This document shows, in pieces, positions 1 through 4,463 of a stretch of DNA of 4,463 nucleotides; positions within the stretch are counted from its first letter, which is position 1, and each line of letters starts with the position of its first letter. Below the pieces are notes generated by a model, which was not told where the DNA came from, searched no databases, and saw nothing but the letters and a program-made list of their open reading frames with translations. This DNA comes from a virus. Its lineage: Duplodnaviria; Heunggongvirae; Uroviricota; Caudoviricetes. A program made the translations under genes and the position numbers. Location: IMG/VR virus record IMGVR_UViG_2695420579_000010, one strand, 5' to 3'.

Positions 1-109
1 AGGGATTTCTGCACCCTCAAATCATCAGGAGACCACCCGAAAGGGCGGGGAGCAGTCACACATCTGTTTCCGATAGCCCCGTTCTAATGCTACACTCTTT
101 GATATTTTT

Positions 110-796
110 ATGACCCCAATAAACATATTTATGACAGTTGCTGATTTCAAACGGCCCAAATTGGAGCTCCCAAACGGGGCAAACAAACTACTACTGCACT
201 CTTGCTGTGCTCCATGTTCCGGTGAGGTGATGGAGGCGCTTCAGGCCTCGGGAATCGACTACACCATCTTTTTCTACAACCCGAACATTCATCCTCAGAA
301 AGAGTATTTAATTCGTAAGGATGAGAATATTCGCTTTGCTGAACAACACGGCGTGCCGTTTATTGATGCTGATTACGACACAGACAACTGGTTTGAACGA
401 GCCAAAGGAATGGAATGGGAGCCCGAACGAGGGATCCGTTGCACCATGTGTTTTGACATGCGTTTTGAGCGGACAGCGCTGTACGCCGCTGAAAATGGTT
501 TCAGTGTGATCAGCAGTTCACTGGGCATTTCACGCTGGAAAAATATGCAGCAGGTTAACGACTGTGGGCGGCGAGCCGTCGCGCATTATCCGGGCATGGT
601 GTACTGGGATTATAACTGGCGCAAGCAGGGCGGCTCGTCCCGTATGATTGAAATCAGCAAGCGCGAAAAATTCTATCAGCAGGAATATTGTGGCTGTGTG
701 TATTCTCTGCGCGATACCAATCTACACCGCAAATCTCAGGGACGCCCTCTTATCAAAATTGGTCAACTCCACTACGGTAAAGAAGAGAAGGAGTGA
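110..796 (+). CDS. queH: Epoxyqueuosine reductase QueH-like protein (DUF208 family)
   Basis: 228-aa ORF with the motifs I associate with QueH/DUF208 Fe-S enzymes: N-terminal [21 protein letters not shown], central RCTMCFDMR and C-terminal QEYCGCVYS. Stop TGA 794-796. Start is uncertain (ATG 110 or ATG 131); neither has a clear Shine-Dalgarno. Confidence 0.75.
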
Positions 797-817
797 TTTT
801 ATGGGGCACCTTTCTGA

Positions 818-847
818 TTGATTTCATATTGGCGAGGTAAGTAGAAT
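818..847 (+). promoter_or_regulatory. Candidate sigma70 promoter of the hok/mok transcript
   Basis: -35 TTGATT (818-823), 18-bp spacer, -10 TAGAAT (842-847). Predicted start near 852-855 coincides with the beginning of the 5' element that is complementary to the 3' UTR. Confidence 0.4.
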
Positions 848-851
848 GACT

Positions 852-902
852 GCGGGTGCTTGAGGCTATCTGCTTCAGGCATGAACACCAAAAGGCAGAT
901 AG
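852..902 (+). promoter_or_regulatory. hok mRNA 5' leader elements (tac-like 5' end plus stem-loop)
   Basis: GCGGGTGCTTGAGG (852-865) is the reverse complement of 1236-1251 apart from one bulged base. An 8-bp inverted repeat CTATCTGC (867-874) / GCAGATAG (895-902) follows. The layout resembles plasmid R1 hok mRNA as I recall it. Confidence 0.55.
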
Positions 903-904
903 AG

Positions 905-975
905 AAAAGCCCCAGTTAACATTACGCGTCCGGCAAGACGCTTAACATTAATCTGAGGCCAATTTCATGCTTTGC
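905..975 (-). ncRNA. sok: Candidate Sok-like antisense RNA (inferred, boundaries approximate)
   Basis: Inference only. Minus-strand -35 TTGCCT (reverse complement of 1005-1010), 17-bp spacer, weak -10 TAACCT (reverse complement of 982-987) would start an antisense transcript near 975 that covers the mok start codon at 967-969. A 5-bp hairpin lies at 926-941 on the minus strand, but there is no clean U-tract terminator. Confidence 0.25.
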
Positions 976-1179
976 ACATGTAGGTTAGCCTCTTACATGC
1001 CGAAAGGCAAGGAGAAGCAGGCTATGAAGCAGCAAAAGGCGATGTTAATCGCCCTGATCGTCATCTGTTTAACCGTCATAGTGACGGCACTGGTAACGAG
1101 GAAAGACCTCTGTGAGGTACGAATCCGAACCGGCCAGACGGAGGTCGCTGTCTTCGTAGACTACGAATCCAGGAAGTAA
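967..1179 (+). CDS. mok: Mok-like reading frame (in-frame N-terminal extension of Hok)
   Basis: 70-codon ORF beginning MLCTCR, 19 codons upstream of and in frame with hok. This is the same arrangement, with a similar N-terminus, as E. coli mokC/hokC as I recall them. Confidence 0.5.
   Translation: MLCTCRLASYMPKGKEKQAMKQQKAMLIALIVICLTVIVTALVTRKDLCEVRIRTGQTEVAVFVDYESRK
1024..1179 (+). CDS. hok: Hok/Gef family type I toxin (HokD/HokC-like)
   Basis: 51 aa, MKQQKAMLIALIVICLTVIVTALVTRKDLCEVRIRTGQTEVAVFVDYESRK: one hydrophobic transmembrane helix followed by the conserved LCE..R.G..EVA tail of Hok proteins. AAGGAG at 1009-1014 lies 9 nt before the ATG. Stop TAA 1177-1179. Confidence 0.9.
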   Translation: MKQQKAMLIALIVICLTVIVTALVTRKDLCEVRIRTGQTEVAVFVDYESRK

Positions 1180-1187
1180 GAGTGACC

Positions 1188-1215
1188 GGGCGGGGAGCTG
1201 ATCCCATCCCCGCCC
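1188..1215 (+). promoter_or_regulatory. Perfect 9-bp hairpin in the hok 3' UTR
   Basis: GGGCGGGGA (1188-1196) pairs with TCCCCGCCC (1207-1215) around a 10-nt loop. No U-tract follows, so it is a structural element rather than a terminator. Confidence 0.5.
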
Positions 1216-1235
1216 ACCTCTGATGTGTCAGGCAT

Positions 1236-1251
1236 CCTCAACGCACCCGCA
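1236..1251 (+). promoter_or_regulatory. fbi-like 3' element complementary to the hok mRNA 5' end
   Basis: CCTCAACGCACCCGCA (1236-1251) pairs with 852-865 as 6 bp plus 8 bp with a single bulged C, the long-range 5'/3' pairing described for hok mRNAs. Confidence 0.55.
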
Positions 1252-1256
1252 CTTAA

Positions 1257-1311
1257 CCCGCCCATCGCTGTGATCTCTCAGCGTTTCGGCGGGTTTTTTG
1301 TTGTTTATTTC
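1257..1311 (+). terminator. Rho-independent terminator of the hok transcript
   Basis: CCCGCC (1257-1262) pairs with GGCGGG (1288-1293), with an inner CGCTG (1266-1270) / CAGCG (1279-1283) stem, followed by TTTTTTGTTGTTTATTT. Confidence 0.65.
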
Positions 1312-1319
1312 CGGTGAAT

Positions 1320-1347
1320 TTGATTCGCGCACCTTCGCAGATAGAAT
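1320..1347 (+). promoter_or_regulatory. Candidate sigma70 promoter of the X1 unit
   Basis: -35 TTGATT (1320-1325), 16-bp spacer, -10 TAGAAT (1342-1347), immediately after the hok terminator. The same TAGAAT precedes repeat copy B at 2146-2151, where the -35 would fall inside the N gap. Confidence 0.4.
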
Positions 1348-1353
1348 CGACTC

Positions 1354-1516
1354 ACTTAAGTAGCGCGCAGGGAGAAGAGGGATGGACCCCGAACAGGGGA
1401 GAGCTATTTATCTGGAAGGATTCTGAAGATGAAAATCGAAGAATTGCGTGAAATTTTTAGTGAAAATGGCCTCTATGCTGTGCGCGTTGAGAATGGAGCG
1501 ATTGTCAGCCATTGCC
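1354..1516. repeat. Direct repeat copy A (leader, upstream small ORF, RBS and first 29 codons of X)
   Basis: Aligns without indels to 2159-2321 at an offset of 805 nt, with about 9 mismatches by eye. Begins with the palindrome ACTTAAGT (1354-1361). Confidence 0.9.
1382..1426 (+). CDS. Possible 14-codon leader ORF upstream of X1
   Basis: ATG 1382 preceded by GGAG (1371-1374) at 7-nt spacing; encodes MDPEQGRAIYLEGF; TGA 1424-1426 lies 2 nt before the X1 ATG. Speculative. Confidence 0.25.
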   Translation: MDPEQGRAIYLEGF

Positions 1517-1716
1517 GCATTAGATGTTTGCAATCTCAACAAAGGAAGAGCGGTGCTGTGTTATTTTATTTTTGTAATGGACTTCTGACGGACGGTTTTA
1601 TTTTGCGTGAGGACGAATTTGTCACATCATTACGGGTTTTGAAAGAGATTGGTTTTAAGGCTGGTTTTCTGCTTTTGCTGAAGAATAAACTCATCTACAA
1701 TCTTGAGCAGGATTGA
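1429..1716 (+). CDS. Hypothetical small protein X1 (N-terminus shared with X2, copy-specific T-rich C-terminal part)
   Basis: 95 aa; ATG 1429 with GGAAGGA (1414-1420) 8 nt upstream. Between the two repeat copies the first 29 codons differ by 4 synonymous and 2 conservative replacements, which supports this frame as coding. I do not recognise the family. Confidence 0.55.
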   Translation: MKIEELREIFSENGLYAVRVENGAIVSHCRIRCLQSQQRKSGAVLFYFCNGLLTDGFILREDEFVTSLRVLKEIGFKAGFLLLLKNKLIYNLEQD

Positions 1717-1754
1717 ACTCCTGCTGTGTAACACCGTGCCACCGGAGAAAGCCG

Positions 1755-2061
1755 ATGGCACATATACAACTGGTCAAACAAACCTCTTCCGGATTACTTC
1801 TCCCGGCGACGCCGGAGAGTTGCGATTTTCTGCATCAAATCAAAATAGGTGAGTGGATACACGCAGACTTTAAGCGTGTGTGTAACTACGCATTCCACAA
1901 GCGTTTTTTCAAACTCCTGCAACTGGGATTCGATTACTGGACTCCGGTCGGTGGGGCGATCACGCCTCGCGAACGAAAACTGGTGTCCGGTTTCGTTGAT
2001 TACCTGTGTGAATCAGTAGGCCGGGAACATACGCCAGCTCTGAGCGAAGCCGCAGAGCAAT
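1755..2061 (+). CDS. Conserved lambdoid-prophage protein, DUF1367-like (5' part only; 3' end lost in the N gap)
   Basis: ATG 1755 with GGAG (1744-1747) 7 nt upstream. Translation MAHIQLVKQTSSGLLLPATPESCDFLHQIKIGEWIHADFKRVCNYAFHKRFFKLLQLGFDYWTP resembles the DUF1367 proteins found near ninB in lambdoid phages; the family name is from memory and unverified. The ORF track starts it at TTG 1713, which I think is too early. Confidence 0.5.
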
Positions 2062-2137
2062 NNNNNNNNNNNNNNNNNNNNNNNNNNNNNNNNNNNNNNN
2101 NNNNNNNNNNNNNNNNNNNNNNNNNNNNNNNNNNNNN
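2062..2137. other. Run of 76 N (assembly gap or masked bases)
   Basis: Seen directly. True length and content are unknown, and it truncates the DUF1367-like gene. Confidence 0.95.
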
Positions 2138-2158
2138 TGCCGGAATAGAATCAAAAAT

Positions 2159-2321
2159 ACTTAAGTAGCGCGCAGGGAGAAGAGGGATGGACCCCGAACA
2201 GGGGAGTGCTATTTATCTGGAAGGATTCTGTTGATGAAAATCGAAGAATTACGTGAAATTTTTAGTGAAGATGGCCTCTATACTGTGCGCGTTGAGAATG
2301 GCGCTATTGTCAGCCACTGCC
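2159..2321. repeat. Direct repeat copy B
   Basis: Roughly 95 percent identical to 1354-1516. Starts 22 nt after the N gap and carries the same ACTTAAGT palindrome (2159-2166). Confidence 0.9.
2187..2234 (+). CDS. Possible 15-codon leader ORF upstream of X2
   Basis: ATG 2187; encodes MDPEQGSAIYLEGFC; stop TGA 2232-2234 overlaps the X2 ATG at 2234 (TGATG). Speculative. Confidence 0.25.
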   Translation: MDPEQGSAIYLEGFC

Positions 2322-2515
2322 TTCCAGACTACACAATTCTGATAATTCAGCCGTCTTTGCCAGCAGGCACGGGCGGCGCTCTCACGCATTTAAATCTGAT
2401 TGGTACCAGCATCCCCCATGCACTGAAGAACAGGCCGAATGGCTCATTCAGTGTTACCGCAGGCGCGGATGCGAGGTTAAAAAAGCCCTTAGCCTCGACT
2501 ACCGTCACTGGATAA
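2234..2515 (+). CDS. Hypothetical small protein X2 (shared N-terminus; C-terminal frame uncertain)
   Basis: ATG 2234 with GGAAGGA 8 nt upstream; 93 aa to TAA 2513-2515. After codon 29 the product is low-complexity (P/S/T/G/A-rich), and the -1 frame is also open through to 2589, so the true C-terminus may differ. Confidence 0.4.
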   Translation: MKIEELREIFSEDGLYTVRVENGAIVSHCLPDYTILIIQPSLPAGTGGALTHLNLIGTSIPHALKNRPNGSFSVTAGADARLKKPLASTTVTG

Positions 2516-2590
2516 TCTCCGTCAGGCTCCCTTACTCCGAACGGCCAACGCGTCCGTCCCGCACATTCCAGCAACGGATCTGGAGGTAAT

Positions 2591-3649
2591 GTGCGGGTAT
2601 TACTTCGACCTGTTCTGGTACCGGAACTCGGTCTGGTTATCGTTAAGCCAGGCCGTGAATCAATGTCAGCATTCCATAACGGCAGAATACTGGTGGAGCC
2701 GGAACCAAAAAGCATGCGTAATCTGCCGTCCGGGGTCGTTCCTGCCGCTCGCCAGCCGCTGGTGGAAGACAAAACATTGCTGCCGTTTTTCAGTAACGCA
2801 CGGGTGATTCGTGCTGCTGGTGGTGCTGGTGCATTGTCTGACTGGCTGTTGCGCCATATTAAATCCTGCCAGTGGCCACACGGCGATTATCATCACAGCG
2901 AAACCGTCATTCACCGTTATGGTACCGGCGCAATGGTGTTGTGCTGGCACTGCGACAACCAGCTGCGTGACCAGACATCCGAATCACTCGAGCAACTTGC
3001 TCATCAAAACCTGTCAGCATGGATGATTGACGTCATCGGTCACGCAATAAGCGGTACGCAGGAGCGTGAATTATCTCTGGCTGAATTATCCTGGTGGGCG
3101 GTCCGCAATCAGGTGGCGGACGCGCTACCGGAAGCGGTATTACGTCGTTCGCTGGGGTTGCGTGCGGAAAAAATTCGCTCTGTGTACAGTGAAAGCGACA
3201 TCATACCGGGAGAGCAGACAGCCACCAGCATACTGAAGCAGCGCACAAAAAATATTGCGTTACTGCCTCACGTCCACCAGCAACAGAACCCACCACAGGA
3301 AAAGACGGTGGTCAGCATTGCCGTTGATCCGGAGTCACCGGCTCAGTATCTCCAGCGCCAGAAATCACAACGGGAAGAGATGCCTGTATACACGCGCTGG
3401 GTAAAAACGCAGAAATGCATGACGTGTGGCAATCAGGCAGATGATCCGCATCACATCATTGGTCATGGACTGGGAGGGATGGGAACAAAGGCTGATGATT
3501 TGTTTGTTATTCCGTTATGCCGTAAATGCCGTAACGAACTACATGCCGGAGTAAAAGATTTTGAAGAGAAACACGGCAGTCAGCTGTTGTTGCTGATTCG
3601 TTTTTTAATGCACGCGAGAAATTCGGGTGTTCTGAAGTGGAAAGCATAA
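2591..3649 (+). CDS. DUF968 / YdfU-like prophage protein with Cys/His-rich modules
   Basis: 352-aa ORF from GTG 2591 with GGAGG (2582-2586) 4 nt upstream; alternative ATG at 2663. The translation resembles Qin prophage YdfU as I recall it. Contains CWHC and a C-terminal CMTCGN..HHIIGHG..CRKCRNELH motif. Stop TAA 3647-3649 abuts the rusA ATG. Confidence 0.8.
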   Translation: MRVLLRPVLVPELGLVIVKPGRESMSAFHNGRILVEPEPKSMRNLPSGVVPAARQPLVEDKTLLPFFSNARVIRAAGGAGALSDWLLRHIKSCQWPHGDYHHSETVIHRYGTGAMVLCWHCDNQLRDQTSESLEQLAHQNLSAWMIDVIGHAISGTQERELSLAELSWWAVRNQVADALPEAVLRRSLGLRAEKIRSVYSESDIIPGEQTATSILKQRTKNIALLPHVHQQQNPPQEKTVVSIAVDPESPAQYLQRQKSQREEMPVYTRWVKTQKCMTCGNQADDPHHIIGHGLGGMGTKADDLFVIPLCRKCRNELHAGVKDFEEKHGSQLLLLIRFLMHARNSGVLKWKA

Positions 3650-4030
3650 ATGACCGAGCGCATAGAATTTGTTTTACCTTACCCGCCGACGGTGAACACT
3701 TACTGGCGTCGTCGTGGCAGCACATATTTTGTATCAAAAGCCGGGGAGCGTTATCGCCGGGCAGTGGCGCTTATTGTTCGCCAGCAGCGGCTGAAATTAA
3801 GCCTGTCCGGAAGGTTGGCAATAAAAATTATTGCAGAACCACCGGATAAGCGCCGCCGTGACCTGGACAATATTCTGAAAGCGCCGCTGGATGCGCTGAC
3901 GCATGCGGGGTTGCTAATGGACGATGAGCAGTTTGATGAAATCAATATCGTTCGTGGTCAGCCAGTATCTGGTGGACGTCTGGGGGTGAAGATTTACCCC
4001 ATAATGCATGAAGAGCAGGTCAAAAAATGA
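3650..4030 (+). CDS. rusA: Crossover junction endodeoxyribonuclease RusA (Holliday junction resolvase)
   Basis: 126 aa with RusA hallmarks: N-terminal LPYPPTVNTYW, the acidic catalytic region RRRDLDNILKA..DAL..AGLLMDDEQ. Its stop overlaps the Q start (ATGA at 4027-4030). Confidence 0.9.
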   Translation: MTERIEFVLPYPPTVNTYWRRRGSTYFVSKAGERYRRAVALIVRQQRLKLSLSGRLAIKIIAEPPDKRRRDLDNILKAPLDALTHAGLLMDDEQFDEINIVRGQPVSGGRLGVKIYPIMHEEQVKK

Positions 4031-4463
4031 AACTGGAAGATTTACCGAAATACTACTCCCCAAAATCCCCCGGCCTGACTGATGCATCGGCCTCAACGTC
4101 GAAAGATGCGCTGAGTATCACTGATGTGATGGCCGCGCAGGGCATGACACAGAATCGGGCTGAGATGGGGGTTTCTGCGTTCCTTGGGAAAATGGGCATT
4201 AGTATGAATGACAGAGAGCGGGCAACAGAATTGCTGACAGAATATGCACTCAGTCGGTGTGATCGCGTGGCGGCGTTAAGAAAACTCCCGGCAGAAATAA
4301 AACCGGCAGTGATGCGTATTATGGCTTCGTATGCGTTTGAAGATTATGCCCGTAGCGCGGCGAGCAAAAAACAGTGCCCCTGCTGTCACGGAAAAAAATT
4401 TATTGAAAGCGAGGTTTTTACAAACAAGATCCAGTATCCGGATGGTAAGCCGCCGGTATGGGC
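4027..4463 (+). CDS. Antitermination protein Q (partial; 3' end beyond the window)
   Basis: Open frame from ATG 4027 to the window end, not in the ORF track because it has no stop. Translation starts MKLEDLPKYYSPKSPGLTDASAS and reaches a CPCCHGKKF zinc-finger-like motif. Sits in the canonical position after rusA in lambdoid late-regulatory regions. Confidence 0.8.
   Translation, partial: MKLEDLPKYYSPKSPGLTDASASTSKDALSITDVMAAQGMTQNRAEMGVSAFLGKMGISMNDRERATELLTEYALSRCDRVAALRKLPAEIKPAVMRIMASYAFEDYARSAASKKQCPCCHGKKFIESEVFTNKIQYPDGKPPVW

Follow-up and report, generated by a model that had tools for sequence, protein, structure and literature searches.

The closest described counterpart of the gene considered here is rem of the Qin prophage of Escherichia coli K-12 (b1561; PF27490), where the gene order is hokD-rem-ydfU(DUF968)-Q. 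Rem is an antirepressor that inactivates the prophage repressor DicA, as was shown for the K-12 protein (Ragunathan et al., J Bacteriol 2023, PMC10448788). The production of Rem raised the transcription from dicBp, a promoter repressed by DicA, by 165-fold and caused filamentation dependent on DicB/DicF, which identified the protein as an antirepressor of DicA (PMC10448788). Rem was discovered by iterated searches starting from the Gifsy/Fels antirepressors of Salmonella, GfoA and FsoA (Lemire et al. 2011, as cited in PMC10448788), which are small proteins inactivating short, non-cleavable, DicA-like repressors. Rem and the Gifsy/Fels proteins are thus alike as small proteins directed against DicA-like repressors.

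The stretch of DNA analysed here, of 4,463 nt and referred to as the window, contains two small open reading frames (ORFs) that begin within the two copies of a direct repeat, and both proved to be rem, which encodes the antirepressor in prophages of the DicA type. A run of N separates the window into a left contig, with copy A of the repeat and genes of a prophage called A, and a right contig, with copy B and genes of a prophage called B (Table 1). As in K-12 Qin, rem is located downstream of hokD and upstream of the genes of the DUF968/Q region, and the leader and first codons of K-12 rem are homologous to those in the window. The three genes differ in their remaining parts: copy A has four extra internal residues and a frameshifted, longer C-terminal tail relative to K-12 Rem, and is followed by DUF1367 instead of the 92-aa ORF and DUF968, while copy B keeps only 29 of the rem codons.

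Table 1. Features of the window, with the sequence family or the type of evidence by which each was recognized
Feature	Positions	Strand	Basis or remark
QueH (epoxyqueuosine reductase) gene, prophage A early region	110–796	+	PF02677, E 1.9e-65; QueH annotation in FDAARGOS_944
hok/sok regulatory region of the hokD-type toxin locus	854–1029	+	Rfam RF01794 (sok), 117 bits, E 3.9e-27
mok-like ORF overlapping hokD	starts at 967	+	
hokD-type toxin gene, 51 aa	1024–1179	+	HOK_GEF, E 4.3e-23; hokD annotation in relatives
Promoter-like site of rem copy A: TTGATT, 16-nt spacer, TAGAAT	1320–1347	+	Consensus scan
Repeat copy A: rem 5′ UTR (1354–1428) and codons 1–29	1354–1516	+	
rem copy A, full-length Rem-family antirepressor gene, 95 aa	1429–1716	+	Similarity to K-12 Rem; PF27490
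DUF1367 gene, first 102 codons	1755–2061	+	PF07105 positions 1–101 of 198, E 1.7e-46
Scaffold gap, 76 N; the contigs on its two sides lie apart in contiguous assemblies	2062–2137	.	
Tail of the prophage B hok-rem spacer, with conserved TAGAAT at 2146–2151	2138–2158	+	
Repeat copy B: rem 5′ UTR (2159–2233) and codons 1–29	2159–2321	+	
Fusion ORF, 93 aa: 29 rem codons and 64 out-of-frame codons of the next gene's remnant	2234–2515	+	
Deletion junction, 250 bp missing relative to L002	2321/2322	+	BLAST, alignment
Remnant of a conserved 92-aa ORF, native frame	2323–2589	+	Without its first 4 codons and without a start codon
DUF968/HNH-like gene (YdfU-like)	2591–3649	+	PF06147, E 2.6e-62; PF16784, E 1.9e-6
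RusA Holliday-junction resolvase gene	3650–4030	+	PF05866, E 2.1e-16
Q-type antiterminator gene, 5′ part, runs off the window	4027–4463	+	PF03589, E 6.6e-23

The direct repeat

The repeat search revealed one direct-repeat family in the window, with two copies of 163 nt each that are 94% identical and start 805 nt apart. The BLAST E-value of the pair is about 7e-68, so that the similarity is not due to chance. The alignment of both copies contains nine mismatches and no indels. Three of the mismatches are in the leader (positions 1402, 1426, and 1427 of copy A), and the other six are in codons (1446, 1465, 1477, 1497, 1500, and 1512). With the ATG at 1429 as start codon, four of the coding differences fall in third positions and are synonymous, and the two others are first-position changes that give N13D and A17T. 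Both copies include ACTTAAGT, a short upstream ORF, and the ribosome-binding site GGAAGGA, and the similarity between them ends at 1516/2321. In each copy the repeat consists of the 75-nt 5′ UTR of rem followed by the first 29 codons.

The first-pass annotation, made from the sequence alone, had described this repeat with the same length, offset, and absence of indels and with about nine mismatches, and the repeat search and the alignment bear this out. Its count of four synonymous changes among six, its abrupt end of homology, and the presence of the palindrome ACTTAAGT, the upstream ORF, and the ribosome-binding site in both copies were all recovered as well, and its view of the 29 codons as a real coding sequence under purifying selection was judged correct. 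The names that it gave to the downstream genes, DUF1367-like and DUF968, agree with the Pfam matches in Table 1. Because the offset of 805 nt spans the 76 N of the gap, it reflects an estimate by the scaffolder and not a measurement.

Copy A and the Rem family

The protein of copy A presents 68% identity with K-12 Rem over 80 aa (E 2e-34) and 69% with a Rem protein annotated by PGAP. A protein identical to that of copy A carries a precomputed match to PF27490, and the same Rem family was found on all 77 homologues retrieved from a large protein collection. The annotation of complete E. coli genomes names the small ORF beside hokD "protein Rem". Local scans with Pfam and NCBIfam assigned no family to either of the small ORFs, and the family name used here comes from the precomputed matches and the PGAP annotation; the local copy of Pfam presumably lacked the recent PF27490 model.

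The position of the gene is consistent with this assignment, as the window, K-12, and the first 104 loci fetched all have rem in a lambdoid prophage with hokD on one side and nin-region genes on the other. The gene order of prophage A is QueH-hokD-rem-DUF1367. Prophage A of FDAARGOS_944, the prophage with a 99.8% match to the left contig (L001), encodes a repressor of 135 aa with 62% identity to DicA, so that a DicA-like repressor accompanies rem there as in Qin; the corresponding gene is located beyond the limits of the window.

Except for a frameshifted tail, copy A is complete and represents an ordinary rem of full length. In the alignments, a 1-nt deletion carries the reading frame beyond the usual stop and accounts for the last 15 or so residues; the "T-rich C-terminus" ascribed earlier to this copy is in part the result of that deletion. 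Copy A is presumably a working antirepressor. About 4,500 blocks of the assembly collection contain exactly this protein, with Shigella sonnei and S. flexneri among the named sources.

The complete Rem domain comprises about 80 residues, with a beta-sheet and a C-terminal helix, and was modelled with AlphaFold (mean pLDDT 75, built on a 10-sequence alignment). A Foldseek search of this model against the PDB returned nothing below E 0.07, and the matches listed are chance beta-sheet similarities. Upstream of copy A, the consensus scan found one promoter-like site where 1.0 was expected, which is weak when taken alone.

The deletion in copy B

The right contig was compared with L002, a related locus with the complete gene. 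Window positions 2138–2321 are 100% identical to positions 3001–3184 of L002, and the BLAST match resumes at L002 position 3435. The 250 bp that are lost in copy B begin at codon 30 of rem and include the rest of that gene with its stop codon, the spacer, and 11 nt at the start of the 92-aa ORF that comes next. The translation of window positions 2323–2589 in the native frame corresponds to the 92-aa protein of L002 from residue 5 on; no start codon is left in this frame, which was absent from the list of ORFs. In turn, copy A aligns with rem of L002, L004, and K-12 through the whole gene and spacer, as far as the ribosome-binding site and ATG that they share for the next gene, with identities to L002 of 76% to 96% segment by segment. 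The abrupt end of similarity at 1516/2321 is thus the endpoint of the 250-bp deletion.

The Rem domain of copy B is incomplete, with 29 Rem codons remaining. The 93-aa fusion ORF is best read as a pseudogene that is open by chance, and copy B would be inactive as an antirepressor. The assembly collection has the exact fusion protein in about 965 blocks, some of them on contigs of about 4.8 Mb, and in 10 of 10 places among the matches listed a Hok gene is located about 220 bp upstream of it. The gene order of prophage B is hokD-rem-(92-aa ORF)-DUF968-RusA-Q.

The first-pass annotation had favoured a cassette-style module, in which 29 constant N-terminal residues serve as a handle for various functional C-termini and partner genes. 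The 5′ block is in fact 93–97% identical among alleles that are more divergent downstream, including a short form of 57 aa, and either DUF1367 or the 92-aa ORF with DUF968 can come after rem. Nevertheless, such a system is extremely improbable, since copy A is an ordinary rem and copy B a deletion fusion. What had been called the GC-rich C-terminus of copy B is the neighbouring gene, hit by the 250-bp deletion and read in the wrong frame, with no domain. The suggested survey of the N-terminus on other C-termini was carried out on the 77 homologues, and it yielded two intact forms that are homologous to each other, one long (82–95 aa) and one short (57 aa), the latter without about 30 internal residues but with the homologous C-terminal helix kept. 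The other C-termini are wreckage, namely frameshifts, IS1 read-through, and the copy B fusion. In addition, the downstream gene sets are exchanged outside rem, at the start codon of the gene that follows it, and the AlphaFold model places residues 1–29, with moderate confidence, in strands of the one small sheet, which suggests a single domain.

Lambdoid phages exchange modules in a mosaic manner, with conserved linker sequences at the gene boundaries. The rem region follows this pattern in that the change between the DUF1367-DUF1364-DUF1133 set and the 92aa-DUF968-RusA-Q set occurs exactly where the gene after rem begins, at a ribosome-binding site and start codon common to both. The boundary at 1516/2321 is different, being the endpoint of a deletion and not a module boundary.

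The scaffold gap

In the assembly GCA_040189005.1, a single contig of 4.8 Mb (JBEAAA010000004.1) presents copy A near 3.66 Mb (locus L018) and, 1.23 Mb away and in the same orientation, copy B near 2.43 Mb. Window positions 1–2061 match this contig at 99.95%. Directly after base 2061, IS600 begins in L018 and in five other loci (L019, L022, L026, L031, and L033), so the end of the left contig coincides to the base with the IS600 insertion site inside DUF1367 in related assemblies. In three of these six loci the IS600 is followed by an integrase fragment, and the annotated genes beyond it in L018 and L019 include the mod operon. One of the six, L022, continues from IS600 into another replication module; it was considered as a path to copy B and rejected, as it has no match to the copy B prophage.

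The right contig also has a different natural neighbour. The deletion junction was present in 16 contiguous loci, and in each of them the base corresponding to window position 2138 directly follows the hok terminator and copy B is preceded by its own hokD; one of these loci (L110) is 100% identical to window positions 2138–4463. The left flank of the copy B locus differs among L006–L011, and IS600-rich genomes rearrange here.

The arrangement of the window was also searched for directly. The unique parts of copies A and B were adjacent in none of 5,426 complete E. coli genomes, and the layout rem-DUF1367-rem was absent from these genomes and from 110 fetched related loci. The first 104 loci fetched always present the order Hok-rem-(DUF1367 or 92aa-DUF968). 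The junction pattern of A and B had no match in the assembly-contig collection, no record of the ORF spanning the gap was found, and a scan of the fetched loci showed no run of 76 N. In none of the relatives examined were both copies on one molecule at the spacing of the window. Two copies in one genome are in themselves normal, as hok-rem occupies a median of two places per E. coli genome and up to 10.

A link between the contigs mediated by IS600 was considered and rejected. An IS600 is located 1.3 kb upstream of copy B, and it turns towards B the same end that the copy A IS600 turns towards A; consequently, a single IS600 cannot bridge A to B in direct orientation. Moreover, IS600 has 1.26 kb and the natural upstream sequence of the right contig is a hok region of more than 1.3 kb, which makes a gap of 76 nt impossible as written.

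These results bear on the possibility that the scaffold order is correct, that is, that a rearrangement truly placed the copy B module downstream of the truncated DUF1367, with the repeated rem 5′ parts a few kb apart and only the gap size wrong. Some evidence available to the scaffolder did link both contigs, the region is rich in IS600 and IS1 with flanks that vary between strains, and the draft contig L005 holds two Hok-Rem-DUF968-RusA modules 4.8 kb apart. We regard this as improbable, given the lengths of IS600 and of the hok region, the IS600 orientations, and the absence of the layout from contiguous assemblies among the 110 related loci and the 5,426 E. coli genomes. The L005 contig itself contains N positions and was not accepted as a secure real tandem. 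Even if the order were true, the repeat would still consist of two prophage rem genes and not of a module system.

Thus, it is highly probable, judging from close relatives, that the window is a chimeric join of two lambdoid prophage remnants of one Shigella-type genome. The first-pass annotation had offered a join of related prophages across the N gap as its alternative, and this alternative is the one supported by the distance of 1.23 Mb, the hok sequences upstream of copy B in 16 of 16 loci, and the lack of adjacency in 5,426 genomes. The source isolate would then have the same layout as the contiguous related assemblies. The window also resembles known short-read scaffold mis-joins, in which one contig ends at the edge of an IS, here IS600, another starts in a multi-copy sequence, here the hok-rem spacer, and N fill the space between them.

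According to this explanation, the scaffold would have joined fragments of two prophage remnants, each with its own rem. The fragment of prophage A carries a full-length rem, and its contig stops where IS600 sits inside DUF1367 in relatives. In prophage B, a 250-bp deletion removed rem from codon 30 onward together with the start of the 92-aa ORF, leaving an out-of-frame fusion that happens to be open. The genes are already known, and the layout is most probably an assembly artefact.

Conservation of the rem leader

Within the rem gene region, conservation is highest in the 163-nt repeat. In a comparison of 54 distinct alleles, nucleotide diversity was 0.074 in the rem 5′ UTR but reached 0.41 upstream of it and 0.30 in the next gene, and third-position diversity was 0.10 in codons 1–29, against 0.18–0.20 further on in rem; the leader and the first codons were the most conserved part of the region across these alleles. 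Of 36 distinct rem alleles compared, 35 have the motif TAGAAT 6–8 nt upstream of the conserved block, although their upstream sequence otherwise differs. The leader also contains a hairpin of the type CCCC-loop-GGGG, the pairing of which is kept through G-U changes.

It is possible, though less likely than not, and compatible with the chimeric join, that the leader of rem is near-invariant because it acts as a cis-regulatory element that times the production of the antirepressor. The low diversity of the 5′ UTR and of the third positions in codons 1–29, the TAGAAT motif, and the preserved hairpin pairing are in its favour, and the signal that induces Rem is still to be found (PMC10448788). On the other hand, the Rfam scan of the window detected no leader family, with sok as the only RNA found (sR55 at 2979–3040 is a sub-threshold chance match), and single-sequence folds of the leader RNA were no better than those of shuffled sequence (z −0.2 to −1.5). 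The palindrome ACTTAAGT is not conserved in every allele compared. The upstream ORF was not accepted as coding, since its frame is altered by indels and ends after three codons in the K-12-type allele. Besides, the sample of alleles is biased to close relatives, and recent recombination could yield the same pattern.

Gifsy antirepressor genes are under LexA control. In this they differ from rem of the window, as no LexA box (CTGT-N8-ACAG) was found near either copy; with one mismatch allowed, the sole match in the window is at 3180–3195, inside DUF968, and is at chance level. A block of about 140 nt is common to all rem alleles (1364–1503 in copy A), comprising the 5′ UTR and about the first 25 codons; that this block is more than a residue of recombination and acts as an operator at the transcription start or as an mRNA element is rather unlikely.

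Implications

The appearance of a constant N-terminus with variable C-termini arose here, most probably, from a scaffold gap that joined two prophages and from a deletion that left a fusion ORF open by chance, and this recommends caution with similar patterns. For the biology of these prophages, one Shigella-type lineage presents one intact-looking copy of rem and one presumably dead copy. The unusually conserved leader of rem is the one mild curiosity. If the leader is indeed a regulatory element, it would set the timing of Rem production and hence of the derepression of DicA-type prophages.

Conservation of the rem leader

The conservation peak of the hok-rem region, as measured across 54 distinct alleles, comprises the 5′ untranslated region and about the first 25 codons of rem, the DicA antirepressor gene (window 1364-1503 in copy A and the counterpart 2169-2308 in copy B). 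Among these alleles, the 5′ untranslated region has a diversity of 0.074, compared with values of 0.3-0.4 for the flanks; in codons 1-29, diversity at synonymous sites is cut by half. The motif TAGAAT is located directly 5′ of the conserved block in almost every allele. The leader presented no match to a known RNA family and no significant predicted fold, and a search for a LexA box at the conserved block found none.

Length and tail variants of Rem

Beyond the common 5′ block, Rem occurs in several forms. Copy A carries a 1-nt deletion (GGCTGG-TTTT; window 1670-1716), through which the frame runs beyond the usual stop and appends the tail LLLLKNKLIYNLEQD; a similar tail is found in the alleles P0044 and P0045. 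In E. coli TUM10008 (locus L003, 4098-4271), a short Rem of 57 aa shares the 5′ block and diverges afterwards; it is an intact ORF, although the reference annotation describes a truncated pseudogene, and this form (P0067) is present on at least 1,000 contigs. In the homologues P0056 and P0075, from other strains, the Rem sequence is interrupted and followed by the tail GNDSNLLIVFYVQIMPDD[LF]VMQLHRF, which we take to be read-through into the end of IS1. If this identity holds, these tails suggest IS1 insertions in rem.

Gene modules flanking rem

Downstream of rem comes one of two alternative gene sets: either DUF1367, or DUF968 together with the 92-aa ORF. The changeover, at window 1717-1757, coincides exactly with a ribosome-binding site and ATG that both sets share (CACCGGAGAAAGCCGATGGC). 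Such a switch between rem and the next gene is a textbook module boundary of lambdoid phages.

IS600 is inserted at the same base of DUF1367 (window 2061) in six independent loci. In two of these, L018 and L019, an integrase fragment and the mod operon lie beyond IS600; therefore, the remainder of prophage A, that of the left contig, is lost in this lineage. On the side of the other gene set, an apparently intact homologue of the 92-aa ORF lies between rem and ydfU in E. coli K-12 MG1655. It has no annotation in the RefSeq record, and the family has no Pfam assignment.

Coordinates of IS600 and of the K-12 homologue of the 92-aa ORF
Feature	Location	Strand	Remarks
IS600 in DUF1367	L018 6634-7900		inserted at window 2061
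K-12 92-aa ORF homologue	L111 4310-4585 (MG1655 about 1,644,309-1,644,584)	minus	78% identity, all 92 residues

A single draft contig (GCA_900160055.1; L005 1151-8230) carries the Hok-Rem-92aa-DUF968-RusA module twice, at a distance of 4.8 kb. This tandem, too, may be a scaffolding product, because the contig contains N at 3477 and 9274-9290.

Upstream, the gene for QueH (epoxyqueuosine reductase; window 110-796) is located in the prophage early region, immediately 5′ of hokD; of the first 104 loci retrieved, 29 carry it. In TUM10008, the interval between hokD and rem (L003 2206-3940) holds two additional genes, which encode a product of 216 aa and a helix-turn-helix protein of 367 aa. The hokD-rem spacer may be a site at which cargo genes are picked up.
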